From Nitrospira japonica (GTDB lineage Bacteria; Nitrospirota; Thermodesulfovibrionia; Thermodesulfovibrionales; DYHX01), in the NCBI GenBank assembly GCA_020723925.1, contig DYHX01000003.1:1-52584 (forward strand): DNA of 52,584 nt, in the 5' to 3' direction. The notes below the pieces were generated by a model. That model was not told the DNA's origin, made no database searches, and worked only from the letters and a program-made list of their open reading frames with translations. The translations under genes were made by a program, and so were the position numbers. Within the stretch, counting starts at the first letter, position 1; each line of letters starts with the position of its first letter. This document shows, in pieces, positions 1,099 through 30,470 of the stretch.

Positions 1099-3783
1099 TT
1101 ATTTTGCCATCTTTTTCAGTATCTGTTCAAGTTTTTTCAGTTGTTCACCGTAACCTGCCCAATCTCCCTGTCTCTGAAGTTCGTTTGCCCTTTCGAATGC
1201 CCGCACAGCCTCTTTTGCAAGTTCATCAATAGAGACCCTGACATCTTCGATTAATTTTCCTTTAGTCGGCAAAACCTTTCTACCTCCGAATAACCTCTGA
1301 AGACCGAGTTCAAGGTTTTCCTCCATAACAACATCGTTTTCATAGGCAACAATGACCCTTCTAAGTTCTGGAAGCCCACCCTTGTCTACCGCAGCCAGAT
1401 ACAAGGGCTGAACATATAAGAGGGAGCTTTCAATTGGGATAACAAGAAGGCTTCCCCTTATGACCTGTGAACCCCCCTGGCCCCACAGGGTGAGTTGTTG
1501 AGATATATATGAATCCTGGTCTATACGGGCATCGATCTGTCTTGGTCCGAATACGAGTCTGTCCCTTGGAAAGGTATATGCGATCAATTTGCCATAGTTT
1601 GGTTCGTCACACCTCGCTGAAAGCCATGCTGCTAAATTGTCCCTTTTGGAAGGTGTGTAGGGTAAAAGTAAAATGTATTCTTCTTTTTTCTCTTCTGGAA
1701 GTTTCATCATGGTGTAGTATGGCTCCATGGGCTTATCACCGTAAACAGGTATCTCCCATAGGTCTTCTTTATTGTAAAAAACCTTCGGATCGGTCATGTG
1801 GTAAATCGAAAACATTTTTGCCTGCACCTGAAGAAACCCTTGCGGGTATCTGATATGTTTCCTCAGGTCATCCTGCATTTTTGACATGGGTTTGAAAAGA
1901 TCAGGGAAGATAGCATTATAGACCCTGACCACCATATCATCAGAGTCACTTATGTAGAAATTAACGGACCCATTGTAAGCATCAACTATAACCTTCACAG
2001 AATTCCTCATATAATTGATATTTCTGTTTAATGGCTTTGAATAAGGAACTCTGTTAGATACGGTATAGGCATCTACAATCCAGAACAACCTTCCATCTTC
2101 AGAGACAACAATGTAAGGGTCTGTATCATATACAAGGAACGGAGCAATGAGACGCACCCTATCTAAAATATTCCTGTTGTATAATATCCTGCTTTCGGGA
2201 GTAATGTCAGATGAAAGGACGATCTTGCCTGTATTAAACTTCATTGCAAACACCGCTTTCTTGATTAAAGATGATAACTTTACCCCTCCATCGCCTTTAT
2301 ATGAAGTGTAGACATTCCCTTCAGATGTCGGATAACTGAACTCAGGCACCTTTGTCTTTACAATTACATAATCACTCGAAAGCTCGCCAAAATATATCTC
2401 GGGCCTTGTTATCTTTATGTCTGCAGAGGAGACAGGGGGTATGTCTTTGATGATGAATTCAGGCAGACCTTCCCTGGTGATCCTGCTCACAGGGCCCATG
2501 GTGATGCCGTTACCGTGGGTGAAGACCATCTTCTCATTAATCCACGATTTACCTGGCAGGTCGTTGTAAGAGAGTTCCCTCGGAGACATCATGACCTGCA
2601 TATATTCGCCGTTGACTGCATATCGGTCATTGTCAACACCTGTAAATTTATAGTATGTCCTTATCTGCTGGAGCTGGCTGTACGTCCTGAGGAGAGGCGA
2701 GTCATCCCACAACCTGATGTTCTTAATAGTAGCATTGTTTCTTTCAATATCTTTAGCTGTCAGATTGTATGAAACATCAAACGGCCTGACCTCTATCCTT
2801 TCGAGGTCATAACCAACCCTGGTAAATTTAATACCGTGCTCTATGAATGGCCTCTCAAGGGCAAGTTCATTAGGTGCGACCTTAAGATTCTGGAGCAAAG
2901 ATGGATAAACCATAAGGCCGACCACATAGACCAGTGCTGTAAAACCTATCGGGAAAAATGCTATTTTCCATGACCCTCTGAAAAGTCCTGCAATGAAAAG
3001 AACACCGGTTATTAATGTAAGGATAATCAGCAATCTTAATGCAAGGAGTTTAGCATGAATGTCCGTGTATCCAGCCCCAAAGATTACACCATGTGCCGAG
3101 AATAATAGATTAAATTTATCGAGATAAAAACCAAAGGCTATATTCAGAATAAATAACCCTGCAAGAATTCTGATATGCCTTTTGACCCTTCCATCGATGG
3201 ATATATTGTTCTCCCTTGCGGTTATACCTCCCCTGAGAAGATAGTTAGCGGCCACGATGAAAAGCGCTGCCATAATGGTGAGACCTGCAAAACCTTTGAT
3301 GGATTCAATCAGGGGGAGTTCAAATAGATAAAAACCAATGTCCTTACTGAAGATAGGGTCACTTATACCTACATCCATGCGGTTCTGGAAGGTCAAGACC
3401 TCTTTCCATATAGAGCTGCCCCAGATGCCGGCAAAAAGTCCTGTCAGAATTCCTGCCAATATAGTCAGAGGTTTAACCACCTTATTTAATCCCCCTGTAT
3501 TCAGAGAGATTCTTGTTTGCTCTATGAAAAGCAGGTCGATCGATGGAAAATTAATTCTGTTTGCGACAATCACATTGGTTAATATAAAGGCAAGAGAAGA
3601 TAGACCGAATGCTAAGCCTACCAGAACCCTGGTCGAAAGAACCTTTGTGAAGACGTCTGGATAATTGACCTCATTGAAGAAGAGCCAGTTTGTGTATAAA
3701 TTGATTATTGTTACACTCCCAAATACGATAAGAAAAATTAAAGCGGCTAAAATAAGAATAAATGTCCTGTTCCTCTTCATCAT
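1099..3783 (-). CDS. UPF0182 family membrane protein
   Basis: 894 aa with several N-terminal TM helices; family motifs DPIFSKDIGFYLFELP, GAGYTD, NIRLWD, QQIRTYY, FTHGNG, NYMRNSVK, DAYNG, YVQPLYL. Confidence 0.93.
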   Translation of the reverse strand: MMKRNRTFILILAALIFLIVFGSVTIINLYTNWLFFNEVNYPDVFTKVLSTRVLVGLAFGLSSLAFILTNVIVANRINFPSIDLLFIEQTRISLNTGGLNKVVKPLTILAGILTGLFAGIWGSSIWKEVLTFQNRMDVGISDPIFSKDIGFYLFELPLIESIKGFAGLTIMAALFIVAANYLLRGGITARENNISIDGRVKRHIRILAGLFILNIAFGFYLDKFNLLFSAHGVIFGAGYTDIHAKLLALRLLIILTLITGVLFIAGLFRGSWKIAFFPIGFTALVYVVGLMVYPSLLQNLKVAPNELALERPFIEHGIKFTRVGYDLERIEVRPFDVSYNLTAKDIERNNATIKNIRLWDDSPLLRTYSQLQQIRTYYKFTGVDNDRYAVNGEYMQVMMSPRELSYNDLPGKSWINEKMVFTHGNGITMGPVSRITREGLPEFIIKDIPPVSSADIKITRPEIYFGELSSDYVIVKTKVPEFSYPTSEGNVYTSYKGDGGVKLSSLIKKAVFAMKFNTGKIVLSSDITPESRILYNRNILDRVRLIAPFLVYDTDPYIVVSEDGRLFWIVDAYTVSNRVPYSKPLNRNINYMRNSVKVIVDAYNGSVNFYISDSDDMVVRVYNAIFPDLFKPMSKMQDDLRKHIRYPQGFLQVQAKMFSIYHMTDPKVFYNKEDLWEIPVYGDKPMEPYYTMMKLPEEKKEEYILLLPYTPSKRDNLAAWLSARCDEPNYGKLIAYTFPRDRLVFGPRQIDARIDQDSYISQQLTLWGQGGSQVIRGSLLVIPIESSLLYVQPLYLAAVDKGGLPELRRVIVAYENDVVMEENLELGLQRLFGGRKVLPTKGKLIEDVRVSIDELAKEAVRAFERANELQRQGDWAGYGEQLKKLEQILKKMAK

Positions 3784-3811
3784 CTCTAAACCTCCTCTCG
3801 ATTTTAAATGG

Positions 3812-3915
3812 ATAGCGAGCGTATTCCCCGCAGCTTGCTGCGGGGTTTAGCAAGCGAATATAAAAATAATAATTCCTTGCATTAAGATTCCCTGTAGCAA
3901 GCTACGGGGAATCTT
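3812..3915. repeat. Double-hairpin palindromic element (REP-like or IS200/IS605-derived non-autonomous element)
   Basis: Hairpin CCCCGCAGC-TT-GCTGCGGGG (3826-3845) and related hairpin GATTCCCTGTAGC-AA-GCTACGGGGAATC (3886-3913) in a divergent intergenic region. Confidence 0.7.
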
Positions 3916-3998
3916 CAATTACAGGGTAAAAATTACTGGTCAAACCATTATATATATCCAGGGTGATAATAACAACCGTATTTAGTATAATTATAACT

Positions 3999-4646
3999 AT
4001 GAATGGATATTCTTTAGAGCATTTGATAACTGCAGTTGTAGCTGGACAAAATGACAGAGCTGTATCTATTGCGGAGGTATTACTTAAAAACGGCACAAGC
4101 CCCGAATCATTAATACAGGATGGACTGACTGTGGCGCTCCGCTCCCTCGATGCTAAGTGCACCGCTGAGGAGTTTAATCTCTTAGAGATAATGCTTGCAG
4201 GCAGGGCGATGATGACAGTCATGGACAATGTCATTGCAACACACCTTTTGAGCAGCTCTACAATTGAGCCTGTCCCTGAAAAGACAATTATTATAGGCAC
4301 AATAAAAGGAGACATCCATGAGCTTGGCAAAAATGTAGTAAAGATGATGCTTAAGGCTCAGGGGCTCAGGGTTATAGACATTGGCAAAGATGCAAGCCCT
4401 GAGAGCTTTGTCAAGGCTGCAATGTTAGAAAGTGCAAGATTTATCGGCGTAAGCAGCCTGATCACATTGACAATGCCATTTATAAGAGAGATAAGACCGC
4501 TGTTGAACGATACAGGGCTTGATAATGTAAAAATACTTGCTGGAGGGGCTGCAATACAGCAGGCATCTCCCTCGGACCTCAATGTTGATTTTGTCGCTCA
4601 GGACGTATTTGATGCCGTACACTACCTAAATGGGCTCACCTCATGA
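3999..4646 (+). CDS. Corrinoid (cobalamin)-binding protein, MtaC/MttC-like (cap domain + B12-binding Rossmann domain)
   Basis: DxHxxG motif (GDIHELGKNVV), SxL (SSLIT), GGA; N-terminal four-helix cap. Start moved from the track's GTG at 3963 to the ATG at 3999. Confidence 0.9.
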   Translation: MNGYSLEHLITAVVAGQNDRAVSIAEVLLKNGTSPESLIQDGLTVALRSLDAKCTAEEFNLLEIMLAGRAMMTVMDNVIATHLLSSSTIEPVPEKTIIIGTIKGDIHELGKNVVKMMLKAQGLRVIDIGKDASPESFVKAAMLESARFIGVSSLITLTMPFIREIRPLLNDTGLDNVKILAGGAAIQQASPSDLNVDFVAQDVFDAVHYLNGLTS

Positions 4647-5653
4647 CATCATATGAACGAGTATTAAACACTATAGAAGGTAAAGGCATTGACAGGGTCT
4701 CCGCAGCTCCGGAGATATTTGGCCTTTCAGCAAGGATAAATGGGTACACTATAAAACAGTATGTGACAGACGCACAAACACTCGCTTTATGTCAGATTAA
4801 AAGCCAACAGGTGTTTGGTTGCGATATTGTATTTGCCTTTGCTGATACAGCGCTGGAGGCTGAGGCAGTTGGATGCAGGCTTTACTATCCTGATAATGCA
4901 TATCCCTATATCGTTGATCATATCATTAAAACCTCAAAAGACATCGATAAGCTTAAAATACCAGACCCGTTCAGAGACGGCAGAATGCCATTAGTAGTTG
5001 AGGCATGCCGCTCAATGCATAATGAGCTAAAAGACGACTGTGTGGTAACAGCATGTGTGCCTGGTCCTATAAGCCTTGCAGCCCAACTCTCAGGGCTTGA
5101 GACATTTATGTTTTTGATAGCAGACGACTTAGACTCTGTGGAAAAAATACTTAATTTTTCAGAGGATGTGATAATGCGTTATGCAGAGGCACTTTTAAAG
5201 TCAGGTGCGCACTCTATAATGCTTTTTGACCCTGTCGCATCCCCGGCAGTTGTGCCGCCCTCTGTGTTTAAAGATCTGGAAGCCCCTCGTTTAAAACGGA
5301 TGACCGATGCACTCAGGGCGATGGGGTCAAAGTTCCTGTGGTTAAGCATTGCAGGGGCTACTCAAAAAATACTCCCGCTTTTTTCAGGTATAGGGATTGA
5401 CCTTGCTACCGTAGACTATGTAGTGCCTATATCTGATGCCATACGCCTCACCGAAGGTGTAATTATAAACGGCAATATAAAACCGCTGTCCTTTGTCACT
5501 GCCCAACCAGATGAGATAAAACAGATTGCCATTAACTGCTTAAATGAGGCAAAGGGCAGATTTATATTAGGCTCTGGGTGCGAAATGCCTCTTGAGTCGA
5601 AACCTGAGAACATAGGAGCGCTAATAGATGCGGCAGTTTCATCGCCCCTTTAA
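4643..5653 (+). CDS. Uroporphyrinogen decarboxylase-fold methyltransferase (MtaA/CmuA-like MT2), with atypical Zn site
   Basis: MTSYERV start, EAEAVG, DGRMP, GPISLA, FDPVAS, GNIKP, FILGSGCEMP..KPENI; ATGA overlap with the corrinoid gene. Confidence 0.85.
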   Translation: MTSYERVLNTIEGKGIDRVSAAPEIFGLSARINGYTIKQYVTDAQTLALCQIKSQQVFGCDIVFAFADTALEAEAVGCRLYYPDNAYPYIVDHIIKTSKDIDKLKIPDPFRDGRMPLVVEACRSMHNELKDDCVVTACVPGPISLAAQLSGLETFMFLIADDLDSVEKILNFSEDVIMRYAEALLKSGAHSIMLFDPVASPAVVPPSVFKDLEAPRLKRMTDALRAMGSKFLWLSIAGATQKILPLFSGIGIDLATVDYVVPISDAIRLTEGVIINGNIKPLSFVTAQPDEIKQIAINCLNEAKGRFILGSGCEMPLESKPENIGALIDAAVSSPL

Positions 5654-6314
5654 GCTTGTAGCCTGTGAGGTATTTAAAAAAGATATCCTCAGAATACAGC
5701 ACAGGTTTAATTTGACATCACAGTATGATACGCTTTTTCTAGCTTTTGGATACCACAGAAATCCAAAAGAACTATCAAAAAAACTGCAAGAGATTATTGA
5801 TAAATGCACAGATTATGAGTATACCATCCTTTCATACGGCTGCTGCGGAGGCGGTGCTATGGGCTTTGAGGTAAAAGAGACTCCGGTTGTGATACCAAGA
5901 GTCCATGACTGCTTTGATATTTTTTTAGGCAGACAAAAACGGACAGCACTTTTTAGAGAAGAGCCCGGGACTTACTTTCTATCGGATGGATGGGTCGCAT
6001 CAGACGGCACCCCATTTGAAAAGCTGAATAACAATAAAAGCAACTTAACTGTTGGCCTTGAAGACAATAATCTTATAACTCTGGCTTACAGCGGCTATAA
6101 AAGGCTGGTCTTTATCAGGACAGGCTCTGAATTAGATATAACCAATAGCCGAGTAAGGCTCTCCGCATCCATGATGGGATGGGATATGGTTGAAATAAAC
6201 TCAGACATGTCTGTATTACACAGACTTTTGAACTTTCAATGGGACAGTAATGATTTTTTAACGCTTAAAACTGGAGAGCGGTTTGATATACAAAGATTGA
6301 TAAAATCAGCATAA
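5628..6314 (+). CDS. DUF1638 domain protein
   Basis: ACEVF, GYHRNP, YGCCGGG, PRVHDCFDIFLG, GTYFLSDGW motifs typical of DUF1638, a family found next to corrinoid methyltransferases. Confidence 0.85.
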   Translation: MRQFHRPFKLVACEVFKKDILRIQHRFNLTSQYDTLFLAFGYHRNPKELSKKLQEIIDKCTDYEYTILSYGCCGGGAMGFEVKETPVVIPRVHDCFDIFLGRQKRTALFREEPGTYFLSDGWVASDGTPFEKLNNNKSNLTVGLEDNNLITLAYSGYKRLVFIRTGSELDITNSRVRLSASMMGWDMVEINSDMSVLHRLLNFQWDSNDFLTLKTGERFDIQRLIKSA

Positions 6315-6355
6315 GCCTTCGGTGCATAAAAAAATATGTAGGGGTTTATTTAAGC

Positions 6356-8188
6356 ATGAAAGACAAACACTTAAAGATTACCATACAGCCTGGCAATAAA
6401 AGAATTACCGTGCCTAAAGGTTCAAACCTTTTAAGCGTGCTCACCTTCGCCGGGGTAACTATCCCAACCCTTTGCAATCACAATGGCTCATGCGGTAAGT
6501 GCAGGGTTATATTAAGAACAGTGGCAGATGAGCCGTCAGATGTTGAACGCTTCTCCCTTGGCGAGGCATTAATAAGCGAAGGTTACAGACTTGCCTGTAA
6601 GACAATCATTTTTAATGACTGTGAAGTCGTTATCCCGCAGGAAAGCGTAGAGAATATGTTTGAACCTTCTTACACGGGTGAAGAGATTAGCCAGATATCA
6701 GAAATGCCTTATGCTGTAGAGCCGCATATCTTACAAAAAGAGGTCAATCTTACCAGTAGCAAAATCTTCCCTATAGACAAAAGGGTGTTGGCAGCAGTTG
6801 GTGAAAACTATAGCATCAGACCATCACTTATCTATCACCTAAAAGAAAAGGCATCAGGGCATTCATGGGCTGTGCTTAACAAAAGCCGTAGAGAGGTCAC
6901 TGATATTATAAAAAAACCCACTGCTGTATTAGCAGCCTTAGATATTGGAACAACAACTATAGCAGGGTATTTATTTGATGTAGCAGGGGGGAAACTGCTA
7001 AGCGCATCTACCATCTTTAACCCTACAACTGTATTTGGCGGAGATGTGATAAGCCGCCTTACATTTGCAGCGACTAACCCTGACGGCACAGCAAGGCTTC
7101 ACAGAAGTCTCTTAGAAGGGGTAAGGAACATATTACAGATACTTTGCAAGCGTGCAGAGCGTCAATCAAAAGATATATACCAGATTGCTGTGTGCGGCAA
7201 CACCATAATGCAGCATATATTCATAGGTATTGATGCCTCATGCATGGGTATTGCCCCATATGAGCCAACCATAACCAATCTATACAACATAAGACTGCGG
7301 CATATAAAAGACTACAAGGCATTGGGGCTTAATCAAGATATAGATGTCTTGATAATGCCGGCGGTAAGCGCATTTATAGGGGGCGATGCTGTTGCTTGCG
7401 CCCTTGCTGTAAGCCTGCACAAGAAAGATAGACCATCCCTTATTATAGATTTAGGCACTAATGGAGAGATGCTTTTAGGGCACAAAAAAGGTATATGGGC
7501 TGCATCAGCAAGCGCAGGGCCTGCCTTTGAAGGATATAGTCTAAGTTCAGGCATGCGTGCGGGGATTGGCGCAATAGAATATGTGGCGATAAACAATCAT
7601 CTGAGCGTCAAATACCGTGTAATAGGGGGGGGAGCACCTGTAGGCTTATGCGGCTCAGGGGCGATTTCAACAATGGCCCACCTTGTAGGCTATGGTTTTA
7701 TCACTGAAAAAGGTCATTTAAAGGCTTCTCAACAGTCTCAGCGTTTTACAGACGGAGGGTTTGTCATTGCCTCTGCAGAAGAGACATCAACGGGTAGACC
7801 AATAACATTCACCCGTAAGGACGTAGAGGCGCTTCAGTCAGCAAAGGCTGCATTTGCATGCGGCATCTCATATCTGATAAAGGCTGCAGACATCAGCCCT
7901 GAGGATATAGAAAATGTCTATCTTGCAGGCGCATTCGGAAACAGGATTGAAGTTGACGACCTCAAGGTCATAGGGCTCATACCGTCAGACATCAAGGCAG
8001 CAACTTCGTATATAGGCAATGCAGCAGGGATTGGCGTATCTATGGCGCTGCTGTCAGACACCGCGCAAAGCGACGCTCAAGCTATTGCAGATATGACAAA
8101 ACATATAAACCTCGGCGCTTCATTACAGTTTGAGGATGAATTCGTCAACGCCCTTTTCTTCAAAAATTCAGGATGCTATGGAAGGTAA
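6356..8188 (+). CDS. ATP-dependent reductive activator of corrinoid proteins (RACo/RamA-like, ASKHA, DUF4445) with N-terminal [2Fe-2S]
   Basis: CNHNGSCGKC...RLAC ferredoxin; DIGTTT, GGDVISR, DLGTNGE, AGPAFEG, GLCGSG, LAGAFG, GNAAG. Confidence 0.92.
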   Translation: MKDKHLKITIQPGNKRITVPKGSNLLSVLTFAGVTIPTLCNHNGSCGKCRVILRTVADEPSDVERFSLGEALISEGYRLACKTIIFNDCEVVIPQESVENMFEPSYTGEEISQISEMPYAVEPHILQKEVNLTSSKIFPIDKRVLAAVGENYSIRPSLIYHLKEKASGHSWAVLNKSRREVTDIIKKPTAVLAALDIGTTTIAGYLFDVAGGKLLSASTIFNPTTVFGGDVISRLTFAATNPDGTARLHRSLLEGVRNILQILCKRAERQSKDIYQIAVCGNTIMQHIFIGIDASCMGIAPYEPTITNLYNIRLRHIKDYKALGLNQDIDVLIMPAVSAFIGGDAVACALAVSLHKKDRPSLIIDLGTNGEMLLGHKKGIWAASASAGPAFEGYSLSSGMRAGIGAIEYVAINNHLSVKYRVIGGGAPVGLCGSGAISTMAHLVGYGFITEKGHLKASQQSQRFTDGGFVIASAEETSTGRPITFTRKDVEALQSAKAAFACGISYLIKAADISPEDIENVYLAGAFGNRIEVDDLKVIGLIPSDIKAATSYIGNAAGIGVSMALLSDTAQSDAQAIADMTKHINLGASLQFEDEFVNALFFKNSGCYGR

Positions 8189-9929
8189 CAACAAAGAGGC
8201 TGATATAAACCTTTCAGGGCTTTCTACAATTATTAAGCTCAACAATATGTTTGGATTTCTCCCGATCAGTCTTAATGAAATGCTCTTAGCCACCGTGGGA
8301 GAGGTCTTAAAACTCTTTAACCCCAATAGCTGTGCTATTTTCATGATAAAGGATCAAGACGTAATAGAACTCGCAGCAATTCAAGGTAAAGAAAGCATTA
8401 AACCGGACTTTGACCCTCATAAGAGCCATGATATAAAGCACTGTAAGGTCGTAAGAGATAGTCTTCTCTTTGTGTCTGATGATAAACACCACTGCGCAAA
8501 CCGTCAACCTTATGGTGAAGGATATCCCTTTCATGTCTGTATTCCTATAATTGCTGAAAAGGTTGTAGGGGTACTTTCGATGGATTTTTTAAATAAAAAG
8601 GCCATTTTCTCTGATGAACTTAATATCCTTCTTTCTATAACCAATCAGGCAGCTATTGCAATTCAGCGCACTATGCTTTTCAATGACATGAAAAAGGAAA
8701 AGATAGAGCTTGAAACCGCTTACAAAGAGATACAAAAACTCAATAACGAACTCAGTAAGAAAATATCAGAGCTCAAAGATACTCAGGAGCAGTTATTACA
8801 GTCTCAAAAAATGGAGGCGCTGGGAAGACTGGCAGGCGGCATAGCCCATGATTTTAACAATTTGTTGACCGTTGTAATTGGATATTCTGAACTAACACTT
8901 AACGAATTGTCCCAGGAAAGTTCGCTCAGGTTCAATACTAACAAGGTATTAAAAGCTACTGACCGCCTAAAGTCACTAACTGGGCAGTTGCTTGCATTCA
9001 GCAGAAAGCAGTTTATTGATTCCCGTATAATAAACCCCAATAGATTAATAACTGATTTTGCTGTTATGCTAAAACGACTAATAGGGGAAGACATAGAGCT
9101 TGAGATAGCACTGTCGCCTGATGTCGGCAGCATAAGGGCTGACCACAGACAAATAGAACAGGTGATTATGAACCTGTGCATAAACTCAAAGCAGGCAATG
9201 CCAAACGGCGGGAAACTCTTTATAGAGACAAAAAATGTAAAGCTTAACGAAATATATACTAAGCATTATCTCGATATAACACCAGGGTGGTATGTGATGA
9301 TAGCCGTGTCAGACACAGGGCATGGCATGTCTGAAGATGTGATAGCTCACATATTTGAGCCTTTCTTTACAACCAGAGAAATAGGTCAGGGAACAGGTCT
9401 CGGGCTTTCTGTTGTTCACGGTATTGTAAAACAGCACAACGGCGGCATACGGGTATATAGTGAGATCGGGAAAGGCACAACCTTTGAGATATACCTTCCA
9501 ATCATTGAAGAGCCAATATCTGATTTAACTGAACCATATCAGGATTCAAATATGCCCAGAGGAAGTGAAAGCATTTTATTGGTTGAGGACGAAGATTTAG
9601 TAAGGGAACTCATAAGAGACATGCTCTCAGGGAGTGGATACAGCATCACAATAGCTTCAAACGGAGAGGAGACTATGAAACTCATCCAGAAGACCAACAG
9701 TTGCTTTGACCTATTGATAACCGATGTCGTTTTGCCCGGGATGAATGGCATGGAGCTTGCCAACAATATAAGGGCCTTAATACCAGATATAAAAGTCCTG
9801 TATATCTCAGGCCATAATGAAGATATAATACACAAATGCGGCGTATTAGAAGAAGGGATCTCATTTCTTCGAAAACCATTCACAGCGCTATCATTAAATA
9901 GTAAAGTCAGAGAGGTCTTAACATCTTAA
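8178..9929 (+). CDS. Cytoplasmic hybrid sensor kinase: GAF - coiled coil - HisKA - HATPase - REC
   Basis: GAF (HVCIPII..VVGVL..NQAAIAI), H-box GIAHDFNNLL, N-box NLCINSKQAM, DTGHGM, FEPFFTT, GTGLGL, REC (LLVEDE..DLLITDVVLPGMNG..FLRKPF); no TM helix; ATG at 8178 overlaps the RACo stop. Confidence 0.92.
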   Translation: MEGNNKEADINLSGLSTIIKLNNMFGFLPISLNEMLLATVGEVLKLFNPNSCAIFMIKDQDVIELAAIQGKESIKPDFDPHKSHDIKHCKVVRDSLLFVSDDKHHCANRQPYGEGYPFHVCIPIIAEKVVGVLSMDFLNKKAIFSDELNILLSITNQAAIAIQRTMLFNDMKKEKIELETAYKEIQKLNNELSKKISELKDTQEQLLQSQKMEALGRLAGGIAHDFNNLLTVVIGYSELTLNELSQESSLRFNTNKVLKATDRLKSLTGQLLAFSRKQFIDSRIINPNRLITDFAVMLKRLIGEDIELEIALSPDVGSIRADHRQIEQVIMNLCINSKQAMPNGGKLFIETKNVKLNEIYTKHYLDITPGWYVMIAVSDTGHGMSEDVIAHIFEPFFTTREIGQGTGLGLSVVHGIVKQHNGGIRVYSEIGKGTTFEIYLPIIEEPISDLTEPYQDSNMPRGSESILLVEDEDLVRELIRDMLSGSGYSITIASNGEETMKLIQKTNSCFDLLITDVVLPGMNGMELANNIRALIPDIKVLYISGHNEDIIHKCGVLEEGISFLRKPFTALSLNSKVREVLTS

Positions 9930-10012
9930 AACGCATCAGAAATATTCAACATATAATTTGGTCATTAGCCCAAAAGATGCAGACATGGATTCAAAATTTC
10001 TTCAATGCGACG

Positions 10013-10171
10013 TATTTATTACCTAAATTGAGCGATTTATTATGCAAACCCATGACAGCCGAGACGGCTGTCCTACCCTATGGGTATATAGGTGTTATCC
10101 AGTAGGACAGGCGTCTCGCCTGTCAAAGAGTGATTTATGATTAAAGAATCGCTCAATTTGGGTATTAAATA
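10013..10171. mobile_element. MITE/REP-like element: about 25 bp imperfect terminal inverted repeats enclosing an inverted pair of REP-like palindromes
   Basis: Left TATTTATTACCTAAATTGAGCGATT vs right AATCGCTCAATTTGGGTATTAAATA (2 mismatches); inner TGACAGCCGAGACGGCTGTCCTAC (10053-10076) inverted to GTAGGACAGGCGTCTCGCCTGTCA (10102-10125). Confidence 0.7.
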
Positions 10172-10241
10172 AAATCCGAAAGATAGCTTGCTATTTTTGG
10201 TAAAATTGAGATACTGCTGATGTGAAGGAGGCGATATACAG

Positions 10242-11357
10242 ATGAACGGTGCATTATTTCAGGGTTCATGGAAGATAACGACAATAATGGGGATACCTAT
10301 CAGGATTCATTTTTCATGGCTTATTGTCTTTGGTTTGATAACGTGGTCATTATCTACCTACTATTTCCCGAAGGCAGCCCCTGAACTTCCAGCAGCCTCT
10401 TACTGGATTAAAGGTGCTATAGCAGCATTCCTGCTCTTTGCCTCTGTTGCATTTCATGAACTTGCACATTCATATATCGCTAAGAAATACAGGATTTCTA
10501 TCATAAGTATTACACTGTTCATTTTCGGGGGCGTTGCACAGATGAAAGGAGAACCCCCACATCCAAAGGCAGAATTCAGGATTGCAATTGCTGGCCCCCT
10601 TTCGAGCTTTTTCTTATCAGGTCTTTTTTTTCTGCTCTATATAAATACGGTTGGTGCCGGAACAAAGGCCCTCTTTTCGTATCTTGCGCAGCTCAATTTT
10701 ATACTTGGAACATTCAATCTCATCCCGGGCTTTCCGATGGATGGTGGAAGGGTATTAAGGTCAATAATATGGAAAAGGACAAAAGATTACTTTTATGCCA
10801 CTCGAAAGGCATCCAGTTTCGGGCAGAAGATTGCCCTTTTCTTTATCTTTTTTGGATTGTTCTCGATCTTCACAGGCTTCCCGGGGGGATTATGGCTGAT
10901 GCTCATAGGCTGGTTTCTTTATACTGCAGCCCAGGCGAGTTATCAGCAGGCAACCCTTCAGGAGACCCTTTCAGGCATTAAAGTCAAAGATATAATGGTG
11001 AGGGATATTGTGACTCTCAGTTCATCGATTGCTATCGACGAGGCTGTGGATAGTTATTTTCTTAGATATGGATATGGTGGATTTCCTGTTGTCGAGGATG
11101 GAAAATTTCTCGGCATCATAACCCTTAAAGAGGTTAAAGATGTTCCCAGGGAGGACTGGGGAAAGGTGAAGGTGTCTGATGTTTTAGTGCCCCATAACAA
11201 AAAGTGGGAGGTGTCCCCTGAGGTCGATACAATGAAGGCCCTTGAATTAATGATAAACGAAGACAAGGGGAGGCTTGTGGTTACAGAGAAAGACAGTATC
11301 ATAGGTTTAATCACAAGAAATGGCATTGCACGGTATGTGCAGATTATGGGGAGATAA
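10242..11357 (+). CDS. Site-2 protease (M50) with tandem CBS domains
   Basis: HELAH, IAIAGP, FNLIPGFPMDGGR, multiple TM helices, C-terminal CBS pair; AGGAGG RBS. Confidence 0.93.
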   Translation: MNGALFQGSWKITTIMGIPIRIHFSWLIVFGLITWSLSTYYFPKAAPELPAASYWIKGAIAAFLLFASVAFHELAHSYIAKKYRISIISITLFIFGGVAQMKGEPPHPKAEFRIAIAGPLSSFFLSGLFFLLYINTVGAGTKALFSYLAQLNFILGTFNLIPGFPMDGGRVLRSIIWKRTKDYFYATRKASSFGQKIALFFIFFGLFSIFTGFPGGLWLMLIGWFLYTAAQASYQQATLQETLSGIKVKDIMVRDIVTLSSSIAIDEAVDSYFLRYGYGGFPVVEDGKFLGIITLKEVKDVPREDWGKVKVSDVLVPHNKKWEVSPEVDTMKALELMINEDKGRLVVTEKDSIIGLITRNGIARYVQIMGR

Positions 11358-18630: not shown

Positions 18631-19398
18631 ATGGCATTTGTAATAGCCCTGGCGGGTAAAGGTGGTACCGGAAAGACGAGCATTGCAGGTCTTGCGGTTA
18701 GATATATTGTCGAGAAAAAGAAGAAGCCTGTGCTTGCAGTCGACGCTGATTCGAATAGCTGTCTCAATGAGGCCCTCGGTGTTGATATTCATACAACCAT
18801 AGGACATCTAAGAGAGGAATCCCTCCAGACCATAAGGAGCGGAGCAGAAAGGCCAGGTGGGATGTCTATGGAGCAGCTCTTTGACTATCAGGTACAGCAG
18901 TCCATTATAGAGTCAAAGGGGTTTGACCTTATGGTTATGGGACGCCCTGAAGGGCCTGGATGCTATTGTGCAGCAAATAATATTATAAGGAAATATACAG
19001 ATAAGCTCTCAGAGACCTATCCCTATGTTGTTATAGACAACGAGGCCGGTATGGAGCACCTGAGCAGAAGGACTACCCACAAAGTTGATCTGCTATTAAT
19101 TATCAGTGATCCGACTGTCAGGGGTGTCCAGACTGCAAAGAGGATTAACGACCTTGTTGATGAATTGAACCTTGATATCGATAGAAGGGTTTTGATAATA
19201 AACAGGATTTCAGGGTCTGATGGAGAGTTGCTCAAGAACCTTGCAGAAGACTCTGGGCTTCATGTTGCAGGCATTGTCCCTCAGGACAGCACAATATTTA
19301 ATTATGACCTTCAGGGAAAACCGATATTTCAACTTCCAGAGGATTCACCAGCATTAAGGACAGTTTTCAATATTCTGGATTTGCTTAACATACCATAA
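18631..19398 (+). CDS. cooC: CODH/ACS nickel-insertion ATPase CooC/AcsF
   Basis: Deviant Walker A GKGGTGKT, DAD, GPGCYC, DNEAGMEHLSR. Confidence 0.93.
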   Translation: MAFVIALAGKGGTGKTSIAGLAVRYIVEKKKKPVLAVDADSNSCLNEALGVDIHTTIGHLREESLQTIRSGAERPGGMSMEQLFDYQVQQSIIESKGFDLMVMGRPEGPGCYCAANNIIRKYTDKLSETYPYVVIDNEAGMEHLSRRTTHKVDLLLIISDPTVRGVQTAKRINDLVDELNLDIDRRVLIINRISGSDGELLKNLAEDSGLHVAGIVPQDSTIFNYDLQGKPIFQLPEDSPALRTVFNILDLLNIP

Positions 19399-19437
19399 GG
19401 GATTACAAAGATTATAAATAATTTAGGATTTAAACCC

Positions 19438-19457
19438 AATTTATAAGTTTATAAATT
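19438..19457. promoter_or_regulatory. AT-rich palindrome upstream of acsE (possible operator)
   Basis: AATTTATAA-GT-TTATAAATT in the AT-rich cooC-acsE spacer. Confidence 0.3.
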
Positions 19458-19551
19458 AAAATAATTACTAAAACTCTTTACCTTAAGTGTTAATTTGTGT
19501 TATTTTTTACATCTTAACTGAATTTAAAGACAGGAAAGGAGTCTCCAGAGG

Positions 19552-20334
19552 ATGCTTATAATCGGCGAGAAGTTAAGCATTATAGCCAAAAGGGTCAGAG
19601 ATGCTATGCTGAAGAAGGACAAAGGTCCAATACAGGAGATTGCAACTGCCCAGTGGAAGGCAGGGGCAGGGATGATAGATGCGAATATCGGCCCTGCCGA
19701 GGACGGAGGAGAGGCATTGATGGAATGGATGGTCACAACAATCCAGGAGCTCGTTCCTCTTCCGATATGTCTTGATACAACAAATGCGAGCGCAATAGAA
19801 GCAGGTCTTAAAGTCCATAATAATGAATGGGGCAGGCCCCTTATAAACTCAACCTCAAACGACCCTGAAAGGTTTCCAATCCTTGAGCTTGCTGCAAAAT
19901 ACAATTCACAGGTAATCGGTCTTACAGTCGGGAAGGGTGGTCTTCCTGCAGATGCGGAGGAGAGGGCAGCTATAGCAGCAGAGATGATGGCAAGGGCTAT
20001 GGAGTATGGAGTTCCCCTTGAAGATCTTTATCTTGACCCGCTCGTCCTCCAGATAGCAACATCCCAGGATCATGCAAGGCATGTGATAAAGGCAATAAAG
20101 ATGTTTCAGGAACTTAATGACCCTCCAATGAAAACAGTGGTTGGGCTGAGCAACATATCGAATGGATGTCCAAAGAACATAAGGCCGATTCTGAACAGCT
20201 ATTATCTCTCACTTTTAATGTATGAGGGGCTTACTGCTGCCATAGCAGACCCTCATGAGGTAGCTGTAACAGCAAAAACCATAGATGTGATAATGGGCAG
20301 GACACTTTATGCCCATTCCTATCTTGAGATGTAG
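19552..20334 (+). CDS. acsE: Methyltetrahydrofolate:corrinoid Fe-S protein methyltransferase
   Basis: Pterin-binding TIM barrel: MLIIGEKL, CLDTTN, LINST, LYLDP, VGLSNISNG; acs cluster context. Confidence 0.92.
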   Translation: MLIIGEKLSIIAKRVRDAMLKKDKGPIQEIATAQWKAGAGMIDANIGPAEDGGEALMEWMVTTIQELVPLPICLDTTNASAIEAGLKVHNNEWGRPLINSTSNDPERFPILELAAKYNSQVIGLTVGKGGLPADAEERAAIAAEMMARAMEYGVPLEDLYLDPLVLQIATSQDHARHVIKAIKMFQELNDPPMKTVVGLSNISNGCPKNIRPILNSYYLSLLMYEGLTAAIADPHEVAVTAKTIDVIMGRTLYAHSYLEM

Positions 20335-20345
20335 GAGGCGATAAG

Positions 20346-21287
20346 ATGGCCTTTACACCGCCAAAAGAGACTCATGCAGGTAAGGTTTATGCAGTAACGA
20401 TAGGTTCAGGTGAAGGTGCTGTAACATTCGGAGGCGAGAATGTCCTTCCGTTCAATACCTTCGAAGGTGCATCACCACACAGGCCTGTGATTGCCTATGA
20501 AATCCAGGACGTCCTACCATCTGACTGGCCTGAAAATGTCCAGAAACCCTATGAGGGAGTATCTGGCGACCCTGCTACATGGGCAAGGTTCTGCCAGAAT
20601 ACACTTAAGGCAAAGGCTATAGCCCTGAGGCTTGTCGGAACCCATCCTGACAGGGAGAACCGCTCTCCAGAGGATGCAGCAAAGACTGTCAGGGATGTCC
20701 TTGCAGCGCTCAACGTTCCCCTTATAATCCTCGGAAGCAACCATGTAGAAAAGGATGCGCCTGTGCTTATTGCTGCAGCAGAGGCTGCAAAGGACAGAAA
20801 CTGCATAATCGGAAAGGCTCAGGAAGGAAATTACAAGACTATTACTGCTGCTGCCATGGCAAATAACCACAAGCTAATAGCCATGTCAGAGCTTGATATA
20901 AACCTCTCAAAACAGCTTAACATCCTTATAACCCAGATGGGATTTGACAAGGAGAGGCTCATTACGGACCCGATGTGCTCAGCCCTTGGATATGGACTTG
21001 AATACACATACTCTGTTATGGAGAGGATAAGGCTTGCTGCCCTTGCACAGAATGATTTAACTATGCAGCCGCCGATGCTTGGCGATGTTGGCATGTATGT
21101 CTGGAAGATTAAAGAGACCCAGGCGCCTGAATCTGAACTGCCACAGTGGGGTTCGACAGAGGAGAGGGGTATAGCATGGGAGGCAACCACAGCCACAGCG
21201 CTCCTTGTAGCTGGCGCAGAGCTTCTTATCATGAGGCATCCCATGGCTGTAGAGGCGGTAGAGAAGGTAATAGAAGAACTTGTTTGA
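20346..21287 (+). CDS. acsD: Corrinoid iron-sulfur protein small (delta) subunit
   Basis: FGGENVLPF, DINLSKQLN, ALGYGLEYTYSVMERIRLAAL, WEATTA, LLIMRHP. Confidence 0.95.
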   Translation: MAFTPPKETHAGKVYAVTIGSGEGAVTFGGENVLPFNTFEGASPHRPVIAYEIQDVLPSDWPENVQKPYEGVSGDPATWARFCQNTLKAKAIALRLVGTHPDRENRSPEDAAKTVRDVLAALNVPLIILGSNHVEKDAPVLIAAAEAAKDRNCIIGKAQEGNYKTITAAAMANNHKLIAMSELDINLSKQLNILITQMGFDKERLITDPMCSALGYGLEYTYSVMERIRLAALAQNDLTMQPPMLGDVGMYVWKIKETQAPESELPQWGSTEERGIAWEATTATALLVAGAELLIMRHPMAVEAVEKVIEELV

Positions 21288-21292
21288 AACTA

Positions 21293-21366
21293 TGACACGG
21301 CGAAACAGGGACACGGCGACTCGGAGAAAAATCTCCCCTGCACCGTTTCTCCCATTCTCCGTGTTG
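21293..21366. repeat. Degenerate octamer tandem repeat plus inverted counterpart (acsD-acsC junction)
   Basis: GACACGGC-GAAACAGG-GACACGGC-GACTCGGA then CCCCTGCA-CCGTTTCT-CCCATTCT-CCGTGTT. Confidence 0.7.
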
Positions 21367-21395
21367 TTCATATTTTAGAAATTTGGAGGAAAAAG

Positions 21396-22739
21396 ATGGC
21401 GTTAACAGGCGTTGAAATATTTAAACTCCTTCCAAAAACAAACTGTAAGAAGTGCGGGCATCCAACCTGTCTTGCCTTTGCAATGAAACTTGCCCAGAGG
21501 CAGGCATCACTTGATTCATGTCCTGATGTCTCTGAAGATGCAAGGAGGATTTTGGGTGAGGCATCTGCTCCTCCAGTAAGGCCGATTAGTCTTGGCGTTG
21601 GTGATAAGGCAGTAAAGATGGGAGAGGAGACTGTCCTTTTCAGGCATGACAAGAAGTTCGTTAATCCCTGCGCATTTGCCCTTGAGATAAAGGACACACT
21701 TTCAGAGGCGGATATAACAAAGAAGATAGAAGATGTTGTTAACTCAGAGATAGACCGTGTGGGTCAGAAACTCAAGATCGATGCGATCGCACTCACAAAC
21801 GAATCTGGAGATGCAGGGAAACTCGAGACTGCTGCAAAGCTTATTTCGTCAAAGGCACCGCAGGTTCCTGTCATAATCTGCACAACAAATCTTCAGGCTG
21901 CAGAGGCAGCAGTAAAGCCATTTGATGACAGGAGGCCTTTGATATATGGTGCAAATGCAGATAATGCAGAGGCAATGGCAAATGTGGCCAAGACCTTCAA
22001 GGCAACGCTCGGGGTCTCTGCTAAGGGACTTGATGAACTCTCCACACTAACGGAGAAGATTAAGTCTTTTGATGTCGAGGATATGGTTATAGATTCAAGC
22101 GCAAGAAGGGCGAAGGAGATACTTGAGGACAACACCCTTATAAGAAGGGCTGCAATAAGGAAGAACTTCAAGCCTCTTGGCTATCCAGTTATAACATTTG
22201 CACAGCGTGAAGACAGCCTGCATGAGGCACTCATAGCAACCATCGGTGTTGCAAAATACTCTTCAATCATAATCCTGAGCAGCATCGAGAAGTGGAAGAA
22301 CCTTGCCCTCTTTACATTGAGGCAGAACCTCTACACAGACCCACAGGTCCCAATGCAGGTTGAGCAGAAGATATACAAGATTGGCGAGGCAACTCCAGAG
22401 GCTCCGCTATTAATCACAACAAACTTCTCGCTTACATACTTCATTGTCTCTGGCGAGATAGAAAACAGTAAGGTTCCATGCAGACTTGCTGTTATGGACT
22501 GCGAGGGGCTCTCGGTTCTTACAGCATGGGCTGCTGGAAAGTTCACAGCGTCAAAGATTGCACAGTTTATAAAGGAAAGCGGTATTGAAAACGAGGTAAA
22601 ACACAGGGATCTCGTTATACCTGGATATGTTGCGATCTTAAGTGGCTCCGTAGAGGAGAAGCTTGAAGGATGGAAGGTAACTGTTGGGCCGAGAGAGGCA
22701 AACGGGCTGCCTGCATTTTTAAGGGCAAGAGCAACATAA
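21396..22739 (+). CDS. acsC: Corrinoid iron-sulfur protein large (gamma) subunit
   Basis: LPKTNCKKCGHPTCLAFAM...CP [4Fe-4S] domain, YTDPQVP, TTNFSLTYF, GLSVLTAWAAGKF, GPREA. Confidence 0.96.
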   Translation: MALTGVEIFKLLPKTNCKKCGHPTCLAFAMKLAQRQASLDSCPDVSEDARRILGEASAPPVRPISLGVGDKAVKMGEETVLFRHDKKFVNPCAFALEIKDTLSEADITKKIEDVVNSEIDRVGQKLKIDAIALTNESGDAGKLETAAKLISSKAPQVPVIICTTNLQAAEAAVKPFDDRRPLIYGANADNAEAMANVAKTFKATLGVSAKGLDELSTLTEKIKSFDVEDMVIDSSARRAKEILEDNTLIRRAAIRKNFKPLGYPVITFAQREDSLHEALIATIGVAKYSSIIILSSIEKWKNLALFTLRQNLYTDPQVPMQVEQKIYKIGEATPEAPLLITTNFSLTYFIVSGEIENSKVPCRLAVMDCEGLSVLTAWAAGKFTASKIAQFIKESGIENEVKHRDLVIPGYVAILSGSVEEKLEGWKVTVGPREANGLPAFLRARAT

Positions 22740-22740
22740 A

Positions 22741-22836
22741 GACAGTGTCAGTGTCAGTGAATAGTGTCAGCAATTAGTGCAAGTGAATAGTGACAGTGTC
22801 AGTAAAAGAAAAGAACTGACACTGAACACTGACATT
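22741..22836. repeat. (GTGTCA)-type tandem repeat plus inverted counterpart (acsC-acsB junction)
   Basis: AGTGTCAGTGTCAGTGAATAGTGTCAG... followed by ACTGACACTGAACACTGACA. Confidence 0.8.
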
Positions 22837-22865
22837 AATCACTATAAATAACATAGGAGGTTGGA

Positions 22866-25064: not shown

Positions 25065-25066
25065 AC

Positions 25067-25147
25067 TGACGCGGAGACGGGGAGACACGGAGAATCGGAG
25101 AAATAATTTTTTTCACCGTGTCTCCATTTCACCGTTTCCCCGTGTCA
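25067..25147. repeat. Octamer tandem repeat plus inverted counterpart forming a hairpin (acsB-cooS junction)
   Basis: TGACGCGGA-GACGGGGA-GACACGGA-GAATCGGA ... CACCGTGT-CTCCATTT-CACCGTTT-CCCCGTGTCA. Confidence 0.75.
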
Positions 25148-25167
25148 ATGAAAAAGGTGGAGGTAAA

Positions 25168-27153: not shown

Positions 27154-27210
27154 TGAATAGTAAAAATAAGTGTCTATGACTATTCACTGTTCACTAACGA
27201 CTATTCACTG
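27151..27210. repeat. AGTGAAT/ATTCACT heptamer repeat with inverted counterpart (cooS junction)
   Basis: TAGTGAATAGT ... ACTATTCACTGTTCACTAACGACTATTCACT. Confidence 0.7.
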
Positions 27211-27222
27211 TTTGGGGGTTAG

Positions 27223-27708
27223 ATGAAAATAGAAGAGCTGAATGTGGATGAAAGGATAGGCAGCGCTGGCGATGTCCTTACAGAGAGCCAGAAAAAGAGG
27301 GGGCTACTGATCCATGCATTCCAGAGTATACAGAAGGAGCACAATTATCTGCCAGAGGATGTTTTGCAACAATTATCAAAGAAACTTGATATACCGCTAT
27401 CTGACGTTTACAGCACAGCCTCTTTTTACAAACACTTCTACTTTAACCCGAGGGGTAAGAACATAGTCTGCGTATGCATGGGCACTGCCTGCCATGTAAG
27501 GGGAGCAGGAAAGGTATTGGAGAAATTGGGGAAAACCTTCGGGGTGAAGGAAGGCGAGACAACTCCTGATTTATCGTTGACCCTTGAGACTGTAGGTTGT
27601 GTCGGCTGTTGCGGACTGGCCCCTGTTGCTACAGTAAATGACGAGGTTGTGGGTGACCTTAGCGCTAAAAAGGTTGATGAGATAATAAAGAAAGTTAAAG
27701 AGGGGTGA
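27223..27708 (+). CDS. NuoE/HydC-like [2Fe-2S] subunit
   Basis: NYLP, ASFY, CMGTACHVRG, ETVGCVGCCGLAP. Confidence 0.92.
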   Translation: MKIEELNVDERIGSAGDVLTESQKKRGLLIHAFQSIQKEHNYLPEDVLQQLSKKLDIPLSDVYSTASFYKHFYFNPRGKNIVCVCMGTACHVRGAGKVLEKLGKTFGVKEGETTPDLSLTLETVGCVGCCGLAPVATVNDEVVGDLSAKKVDEIIKKVKEG

Positions 27709-27709
27709 G

Positions 27710-29596: not shown

Positions 29597-29767
29597 TGTC
29601 AGTAAGAATTTTACTAAGAAGACCACAAGTAAGGCGACATAATTATGTTTGTTTTGTCATCCCGACTTGAACGGGATCATTCTTCAAGAAGGATTCCTGA
29701 CAAGCAGGAATGACAGAGTGTGGTGCCTTACTTATGACCGTATTTGTAACTGACACTGACACTAACT
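29576..29767. repeat. (GTGTCA) repeat pair enclosing a REP-like palindrome
   Basis: AGTGTCAGTGTCAGTGAATAGTGTCAG (29576-29602), inner TGTCATCCCGACTTG...CAAGCAGGAATGACA (about 29655-29715), then ACTGACACTGACACTAACT. Confidence 0.75.
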
Positions 29768-29776
29768 GGAGGCAAG

Positions 29777-30367: not shown

Positions 30368-30376
30368 CTTTAAAAT

Positions 30377-30452
30377 TGTCACCCTGAACTTGTTTCAGGG
30401 TCTAATAAATTAAAATTGATTATTAAGATGCTGAAACGAGTTCAGCATGACA
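30377..30452. repeat. REP-like inverted palindromic pair
   Basis: TGTCACCCTGAACTTGTTTCAGGGTCT ... AGATGCTGAAACGAGTTCAGCATGACA. Confidence 0.75.
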
Positions 30453-30470
30453 TTAATAGGGGAGGCATAG

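Follow-up and report, generated by a model that had tools for sequence, protein, structure and literature searches.

Results

Five co-oriented genes at the locus

We analyzed a 52,584-nt stretch of DNA from Nitrospira japonica (contig DYHX01000003.1 of assembly GCA_020723925.1; phylum Nitrospirota, order Thermodesulfovibrionales), here called the window, which is contig C79 of a 1.87-Mb genome that is 94% complete and distributed over 106 contigs. The subject of this study is a run of five genes that encode a small corrinoid protein (CoP), an MtaA/CmuA-like protein of the URO-D fold, a DUF1638 protein, a RACo-type reductive activator and a soluble hybrid histidine kinase (Table 1); the first four are referred to as the kit. 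Open reading frames and Pfam assignments agree with the first-pass annotation of the window, which had described five co-oriented, mostly overlapping genes with the kinase ATG lying over the RACo stop codon. The CoP and URO-D genes overlap by 4 nt and the URO-D and DUF1638 genes by 26 nt, a 41-nt gap separates DUF1638 from RACo, and the in-frame kinase ATG at 8178 overlaps the RACo stop codon (8186–8188) by 11 nt. The CoP reading frame opens at a GTG at 3963, and alignment of homologues favors the ATG at 3999 as the start; the kinase N-terminus read from ATG 8178 also aligns with its homologues, and a 19-residue hydropathy scan found no N-terminal membrane segment in this protein. By Pfam, a divergent UPF0182 gene and an M50/CBS peptidase gene flank the five genes.

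This arrangement is real and lies far beyond chance, as the same order is found in 8 genomes and 11 metagenome contigs. In addition, a 5885-nt contig from run X1 matches positions 4114–9998 with zero differences, and a 14.5-kb contig from a run of a separate study spans 3985–9952 at ~97% identity. Because the same contiguity appears in an independent assembly, the arrangement is not an assembly chimera. A promoter and terminator scan of 3700–10300 returned no more sites than shuffled sequence.

Table 1. Coordinates and assignments of the genes and domains discussed in the text. Positions are those of the window unless another contig is named.
Feature	Position	Strand	Assignment
Corrinoid protein (CoP)	3999–4646	+	Pfam B12-binding_2 (PF02607) and B12-binding (PF02310); cap and B12-binding domain
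MtaA/CmuA-like URO-D-fold protein	4643–5653	+	Pfam; zinc site degenerate
DUF1638 protein	5628–6314	+	Pfam; two-lobed alpha/beta fold; optional kit accessory
RACo-type ATP-dependent reductive activator of corrinoid proteins	6356–8188	+	Fer2 [2Fe-2S] ferredoxin, RACo middle and ASKHA domains (PF14574, PF17651)
Soluble hybrid histidine kinase	8178–9929	+	GAF-HisKA-HATPase_c-REC (PF00512, PF02518, PF00072)
Kinase GAF domain	~8178–8730	+	
Kinase HisKA-HATPase	~8760–9550	+	
Kinase receiver	~9620–9929	+	
Kit-type GAF kinase and NtrC	G000 contig C31 (locus L102), 3067–6350		131-aa gene between the two

A GAF kinase follows the kit in the relatives

We surveyed all 21 DUF1638 loci of the order and 12 further loci of the phylum, mapping genes by phmmer with the window proteins as queries and by Pfam. 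With the loci added by the nosZ search and the contig scans described below, 17 close-clade loci were informative, 8 of them in genomes (that of the window, G148, G115, G064, G086, G454, G052 and G084) and 9 on contigs (L073, L076–L081, L095 and L097). In G148, G115, G064 and G086 the order CoP, URO-D, DUF1638, RACo is that of the window, with a GAF-HisKA-HATPase kinase and then an NtrC-type sigma-54 activator after it; a scan of genome contigs added a fifth genome with this order, labelled "Deltaproteobacteria bacterium". Overall, a kinase with a Cys/His-rich GAF domain stands directly after the kit in 17/17 informative loci, with or without DUF1638 and RACo, and an NtrC-type activator comes next in 15 of 16. 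A metagenome scan with the URO-D clade returned 11 close relatives at 44–53% identity, in which the GAF kinase follows the kit at 9/9 informative loci and NtrC at all 8 that continue. L073, L077 and L078 have both DUF1638 and RACo, L076 has RACo only, and L079–L081 and L095 have neither. Distant URO-D homologues (~29–30% identity; L084, L086–L092) serve as a natural control, and none of these 8 adjoins a kinase; L085 and L093 were left uncounted.

Across the 21 loci of the order, a CoP, URO-D and DUF1638 unit is adjacent or fused to a signalling output in 9, including the window. A PAS kinase/LuxR pair adjoins DUF1638 in 5, and the remaining 7 have no signalling output or are too short, among them metabolic clusters with MttB. 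Clusters that combine MtmB with DUF1638 occur elsewhere in the phylum. No nos-type locus (see below) has a partner of the substrate-specific methyltransferase (MT1) or AcsE type, and a second methyltransferase was found in 0/19 clade loci. The first-pass annotation had suggested that the kit may feed a kinase in place of a metabolic acceptor, and had asked whether close homologues keep a GAF-containing signalling partner while lacking MT1. The 17 informative loci behave in this way, and the degenerate zinc site and the DUF1638 fusions described below also speak for a signalling role.

Two zinc ligands are lost from the MtaA-like protein

The clade alignments show that CoP keeps the DxHxxG His-on motif (D105, H107 and G110 are invariant) and that Cys54 of the cap is invariant. 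With DxHxxG kept, CoP is therefore predicted to bind a cobamide. It is the only small corrinoid protein of the genome. None of the four kit proteins reaches the curated NCBIfam cut-off of its nearest family: CoP is below every equivalog cut-off, the URO-D protein scores 172 bits against mtaA_cmuA (cut-off 235), and RACo reaches 357 bits with AcsV, under that cut-off, and also misses the RamA cut-off. Aligned with the solved MtaA structure 4ay7, the URO-D protein reads LSIAG in place of the zinc motif LHICG and retains the third Cys (C313). The change is a property of the clade, since the MtaA H-x-C is replaced by S-I/T-A in 16/16 close members, with S235 and A237 invariant. The canonical H-x-C is retained in the URO-D homologues of L019 and L034, which lie in metabolic-looking clusters, and of L021, which has a different DUF1638 context. 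By this alignment, two of the three MtaA zinc ligands are lost, and the URO-D protein is probably a pseudo-enzyme, or an enzyme of altered chemistry, that docks CoP. As judged from the gene neighborhoods, the conserved core is CoP, the zinc-less URO-D protein and the Cys/His GAF kinase, with RACo and DUF1638 as frequent accessories.

Pfam also upheld the earlier statement that the five genes include no MT1, tetrahydrofolate or other pterin methyltransferase, or transporter. No MT1 was found in the five genes or their flanks, and MttB (PF06253) is absent from the whole genome, a genome-wide result that covers PF06253 and not MtaB, MtmB or MtbB. A second RACo gene lies on contig C28, and the sole other URO-D gene of the genome is HemE-like. 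Among the parts that define a catabolic corrinoid system, the locus thus holds the CoP and a RACo/RamA-type activator and lacks a zinc-dependent second methyltransferase and an MT1.

nosZ and sigma-54-type motifs lie downstream in relatives

In nine loci (G148, G115, G064, G086, G052, G084, L080, L081 and L095) nosZ lies 0.3–9 kb downstream on the same strand. NtrC is followed in G086 and G064 by nosZ (nos_propeller and cupredoxin domains) with cytochromes c, and in G148 and G115 by a GltD-like/Fe-S protein, a Rieske protein, cytochrome b and cytochromes c, and then nosZ-nosD-nosF. The GltD-like/Rieske/cytochrome b module is also found downstream in L076, L078 and L079. G052 and G084 carry a reduced kit, in which CoP, URO-D, GAF kinase and NtrC stand directly upstream of nosZ; these genomes have no DUF1638 gene, and RACo is absent from the locus. 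nosZ is present in 20/151 genomes of the order. We tested four genomes (G148, G115, G064 and G086) and in each the kit-linked nosZ is the only one, and the other 16 nosZ loci were also inspected.

The sigma-54-type motif GG[CT]A[CT]N5TTGC occurs in the intergenic DNA immediately downstream of the two-component genes, oriented toward the nos or respiratory genes, in 13 of the 14 loci with downstream sequence, L079 being the exception. The background in the genome of the window is 106 matches in 1.87 Mb, counted on both strands. Sigma-54 activators are abundant in this genome, which confirms its bacterial nature. Upstream of CoP, the motif was found in L014 alone. The window itself has one match (9747–9760, + strand), which is within the 3′ end of the kinase gene and ~500 nt upstream of the M50/CBS peptidase gene, and which may be due to chance.

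A Crp/Fnr-type regulator gene (L013, 6477–7184) is found directly upstream of CoP in G148. Regulators of this family, the Nss proteins, mediate responses to nitrous oxide (N2O) in Wolinella, as stated in a portion of PMC11539149.

DUF1638 is a candidate metal-binding protein and is fused to signalling outputs

Cys13, His43, Cys73 and Cys95 of DUF1638 are invariant in 39 aligned sequences, and this 3Cys+1His set is a candidate metal or Fe-S site. The two-lobed fold is predicted with confidence, at a predicted local distance difference test (pLDDT) score of 93.7, and no solved structure is clearly related to it. In a Foldseek comparison of the model with the PDB no match passed E ≤ 0.001, the best being the PrpR N-terminal domain at a TM score of 0.35–0.40, and the best hits of a wide fold search with VIA (aspartate racemase, PTS EIIA-Man, LacI/PBP-like) reached Z 6.9, within the noise range stated for the tool. 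DUF1638 is present in 20/151 sampled genomes of the order and in 25/401 of the phylum.

Sister systems, mostly in family f4, join DUF1638 to outputs of several kinds. After a CoP/URO-D pair we found DUF1638::GAF-like::HATPase (L030) and DUF1638::GAF-like::GGDEF (L031 and L043) fusions, and L042 encodes a DUF1638::PilZ fusion without an adjoining pair. Separate signalling genes follow CoP, URO-D and DUF1638 in L024 (a GAF kinase) and L023 (a GAF-kinase-REC-Hpt protein), and RACo, CoP, URO-D and DUF1638 precede three kinases in L038. A URO-D::RACo fusion (964 aa; L083 10001–12895, L082 1893–3986) was found on metagenome contigs; in L083 it lies between an NtrC-like gene and a CoP gene on one side and the gene for a 366-aa kinase on the other.

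DUF1638 also occurs in other settings. In a second recurrent context (L017, L020, L021, L022, L015 and L035) it adjoins a PAS-HisKA_3 kinase and a LuxR regulator, together with a URO-D protein (its zinc motif intact, as shown for L021), a CobW GTPase and a 139-aa protein; a carbon monoxide dehydrogenase (CODH; Prismane) gene is adjacent in L017, L021 and L035, and CoP was not seen in this context. Fusions were also seen in proteins from beyond the phylum (P0027, P0037, P0107 and P0117). The partner is often a hydantoinase-type ASKHA ATPase (~915–960 aa), in one case a homocysteine S-methyltransferase (P0107) and in one a membrane/rhodanese protein, and the motifs GYGxCG and HDC are conserved.

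The window kinase is a chimera

Domain-wise BLAST indicates that the window kinase combines a kit-type GAF domain with the transmitter of a generic hybrid kinase. Its GAF is 53% identical to that of an orthologue on contig C31 and 37–41% identical to those of other kit kinases, whereas its kinase core and receiver are 52–57% and 41–47% identical, respectively, to unrelated generic hybrid kinases, a family with >30 copies per genome in this order. The true orthologue of the kit kinases (64% identity to G148 and G115) is found with NtrC (80%) on the 8.3-kb contig C31 of the same genome (Table 1). A sigma-54 motif at 6333 of C31 faces IS (insertion sequence)-like frames, after which the contig ends, and a nos cluster beyond this NtrC may have been lost or left unassembled. 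No NtrC gene stands beside the window kinase, which has a fused receiver and is followed, by Pfam, by the M50 peptidase gene. The window therefore carries the kit-type GAF kinase of the nos-linked module and neither an adjoining NtrC nor a downstream nosZ.

It is the GAF domain that is conserved, having been moved in the window onto a different transmitter. This domain is rich in Cys and His, and H81, C89, C106 and C121 (kinase numbering) are invariant in 18/18 kinases, that of the window included. A search of the GAF profile against PDB sequences gave generic GAF matches alone, and co-folding of CoP and the URO-D protein with the GAF domain as partner scored 0.00 in a run made without controls, which counts neither for nor against contact.

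The four invariant residues bear on the main rival to the corrinoid-based sensing we propose below, a reading that would leave the regulatory circuit as it is. The GAF kinase and NtrC could sense nitric oxide (NO), N2O, O2 or redox state through a metal or Fe-S center in the GAF itself, and the corrinoid genes would then be helpers for life with N2O, acting as a sacrificial Co(I) decoy, in cobamide repair or storage, or in protection of the corrinoid-dependent enzymes of the Wood-Ljungdahl pathway. We regard this as unlikely, though with a probability that is not negligible. It accounts for the invariant residues and for the 6/17 informative loci at which RACo and DUF1638 are dispensable. These organisms also carry acs and the corrinoid iron-sulfur protein (CoFeSP), which N2O should damage, and sections of a preprint on methionine synthesis (bioRxiv 10.1101/192971) describe DUF1638 and RamA-like proteins as supporting B12 enzymes elsewhere. 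Set against this, CoP and URO-D, as the leading genes of the regulator operon, precede the sigma-54 promoter and lie outside the nos operon that would be induced; they still adjoin a kit-type GAF in the window genome, where nos was not found; and the fusion of DUF1638 to GAF-output proteins after CoP/URO-D pairs suits a role in input over one in repair.

The acs operon, catabolism and methionine synthesis

An acs operon (CooC, AcsE, AcsD, AcsC, AcsB and CODH) starts at 18631, 8.7 kb past the kinase. Over 18631–32498 the window holds this bacterial-type operon, which includes no RACo gene, and then NuoE/NuoF-like and formate-dehydrogenase-like genes. The suggestion in the first-pass annotation that the kit might influence the acs operon was not borne out, as synteny in the relatives is with nos and not with acs.

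Proximity to acs is nonetheless one argument for a catabolic methyl-transfer cassette, in which the URO-D protein would be a zinc-independent, O-demethylase-like MT1 that loads CoP from some methyl donor, the methyl group would pass to the Wood-Ljungdahl pathway through AcsE and CoFeSP, and the kinase would be a substrate-responsive regulator. CoP, URO-D and RACo make up the classical kit of such systems, O-demethylases of the URO-D superfamily exist, as described in part of PMC10418091, and the sigma-54 motif of L014 is upstream of CoP. Nevertheless, we consider this reading quite improbable. The synteny with nos, the lack of a second methyltransferase in all 19 clade loci, the position of the sigma-54 motif (facing nos genes in 13/14 loci, CoP in 1) and the existence of reduced kits without RACo all argue against it, and the sister outputs (GGDEF, PilZ and an Hpt relay) are not catabolic regulators.

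Homocysteine S-methyltransferase (PF02574) and the MetE domain PF01717 are both absent from the genome, and its pterin-binding genes (a FolP-like gene, AcsE and one on C97) all lie away from the kit. The kit might accordingly be read as a split, unconventional methionine synthase, made up of CoP, an MtaA-like homocysteine methylase, a RamA-like activator and DUF1638. A system of this kind in Phaeobacter, a split MetH, requires DUF1638 and a RamA-like protein, according to a section of 10.1101/192971, and the P0107 fusion joins a homocysteine methyltransferase to DUF1638. As a main explanation we rejected this and judge it very improbable: MetH-type domains occur in 4/151 and MetE-type domains in 15/151 genomes of the order, with or without the kit, and such a phyletic pattern gives no support. 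Furthermore, the thiol-activating zinc site is lost, and most genomes lack the kit, whose links are to nos and a kinase. For methionine synthesis in these genomes, a divergent core-MetE/Mes-type enzyme may serve.

Dispersed repeats flank the kit

MITE (miniature inverted-repeat transposable element)-like dispersed repeats lie on both sides of the kit, A at 3800–3920 and B at 9990–10215. Dozens of copies of each are scattered over the 106 contigs, and they often sit at the end of a contig. The 237-bp repeat B is missing at this position in the related strain of the separate study, an insertion polymorphism. A repeat-bounded mobile unit was considered, as A and B are also found upstream of the C31 kinase, and was dropped, since with dozens of copies of each the coincidence carries no weight.

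Discussion

Our results suggest that the five genes constitute a cytoplasmic sensory unit and not a catabolic pathway. We hold with moderate confidence that this would be a corrinoid sensor in which the cobalt state of CoP is the input to the kinase, the action of N2O or another oxidant on Co(I) being the likely signal. RACo-type enzymes restore Co(I), and the chemistry of Co(I) with N2O has its textbook precedent in methionine synthase; on these grounds, a conversion of Co(I)-CoP to Co(II)-CoP by N2O or another oxidant is proposed, and this step would constitute the signal. RACo, with ATP, would keep the CoP cobamide at Co(I) or return it there, acting as a reset from Co(II) to Co(I). The MtaA-like protein would be the docking or uncapping partner of CoP, DUF1638 with its 3Cys+1His site would assist in redox handling, and the kinase GAF would read the state of the assembly, whether Co(I), Co(II) or methyl-Co(III). 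In the relatives, the kinase would then phosphorylate NtrC, which would act at the sigma-54 promoter to turn on nosZ and its Rieske/cytochrome b and cytochrome c partners. The reaction of Co(I) cobalamin with N2O is given as the basis of N2O toxicity to MetH in part of PMC13059711. Synteny, gene content, fusions, sigma-54 motifs and the loss of the zinc site are observed directly; CoP as the input, N2O as the signal and every contact between the proteins we infer from genomic patterns.

The first-pass annotation had offered two kinds of signal that the corrinoid protein might report, a methylated compound or redox. The idea that the corrinoid state is the kinase input is retained here in its redox form, and the methylated compound is disfavored. 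The conserved output, an NtrC/sigma-54 switch at nos genes, argues for the cobalt redox state as the signal and against a methylated compound.

Several observations weigh against corrinoid-based sensing of this kind. The case is drawn from genomics, and the kin genomes that it uses are non-independent samples. In the window genome the link to nos is by homology only, as the window kinase is a paralogue with no adjoining NtrC, and neither nosZ, NosD nor other nos-specific genes were found in the 94%-complete assembly. At least 8 informative nosZ loci of the order have no kit (six others are too short upstream), which makes the kit dispensable for nos control in general. The proposed reset enzyme is not always adjacent, RACo and DUF1638 being missing from the locus in L079–L081, L095, G052 and G084, and both proteins are also encoded in clusters of plainly metabolic character, alongside MttB or MtmB. 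Finally, the GAF domain, with an invariant Cys/His set of its own, could sense directly without CoP.

A stronger version of the proposal is that the module is the first dedicated N2O sensor, in which N2O oxidizes a CoP held at Co(I) by RACo, the zinc-less MtaA-like protein and DUF1638 serve as adaptors through which the GAF kinase reads the change, and clade-II-like nosZ is switched on through NtrC and sigma-54. We put this forward tentatively and think it possible but doubtful.

Comparison with known systems places the kit among two-component systems that use an accessory cofactor protein, and suggests that it is one built from methyltransferase parts. Like MtaABC, MtbA/MtmBC and MtsAB with RamA/RACo, it co-encodes a His-on monomeric CoP, an MtaA-like partner of the URO-D fold and an ATP-dependent activator; unlike them it has no MT1, has lost two of three zinc ligands, scores below the family cut-offs and ends in a sensor kinase, followed in relatives by NtrC ahead of nos genes. 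H-NOX/HnoK and NosP/NahK are soluble cofactor proteins co-transcribed with the soluble, often hybrid, kinases that they control. The likeness to these is one of logic only: here the cofactor would be a cobamide on a methyltransferase-type CoP with a dedicated ATP-driven reset enzyme, and Pfam finds no H-NOX or NosP heme domain in the five proteins. NorR, a GAF-AAA+-HTH sigma-54 activator, senses NO by a non-heme iron in its GAF domain and shares with the kit a GAF with metal-type ligands that controls the sigma-54 promoter of an N-oxide reductase. In contrast to NorR, the kit GAF is on a histidine kinase with a separate NtrC, the target is nosZ and not norVW, and a corrinoid kit is always co-encoded. 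B12-binding domains are used for signalling by CarH/LitR and AerR/PpaA, which rely on the photochemistry of adenosyl- or methyl-B12 and whose binding partner is DNA or an antirepressor. The present system differs in that a Co(I)-competent, methyltransferase-type CoP with RACo would feed a two-component system, in strict anaerobes of the dark subsurface (as judged from run labels).

Two systems in the literature come close in gene content. The bacterial type 1 mlp clusters, as defined in part of the paper of Kountz and Balskus (PMC10418091), combine MtaA-like proteins, CoP and RACE without a tetrahydrofolate methyltransferase and include at least Mlp2 and Mlp3 (two or three URO-D proteins). The kit has a single URO-D protein with a degenerate zinc site, plus a kinase, and is outside this definition; in a term search of the main text of PMC10418091, "kinase" appeared solely in the names of metabolic enzymes and "two-component" and "sensor" were absent. 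In the split methionine synthase of Price et al. (10.1101/192971), sections of which we draw on here, DUF1638 and RACo/RamA-like proteins likewise co-occur and serve a corrinoid protein, but the kit locus has no homocysteine- or pterin-binding module, and its DUF1638 is optional and is fused in sister systems to signalling outputs. The literature covered, which is short on subscription journals and without supplements, gave no account of corrinoid kits linked to a kinase or to nos.

N2O-responsive regulators are known, Nss of Wolinella among them, yet part of PMC11539149 has the N2O-sensing mechanism as still being sought in 2024. The compactness and conservation of this module, which comprises four or five soluble proteins and a single kinase, activator and promoter, make that question testable. 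If the proposal is correct, the chemistry through which N2O poisons B12 enzymes would also be what lets the cell gauge it, and the recruitment into signalling of corrinoid machinery of the methyltransferase type (CoP, MtaA-like protein and RACo) would be a first. DUF1638, with its 3Cys+1His site and its fusions to kinase, GGDEF and PilZ domains, would gain a context. In the f4-type relatives, the fusions of DUF1638 to GGDEF, kinase or PilZ outputs would link the same input to cyclic di-GMP signalling, and parts for an N2O biosensor could follow.

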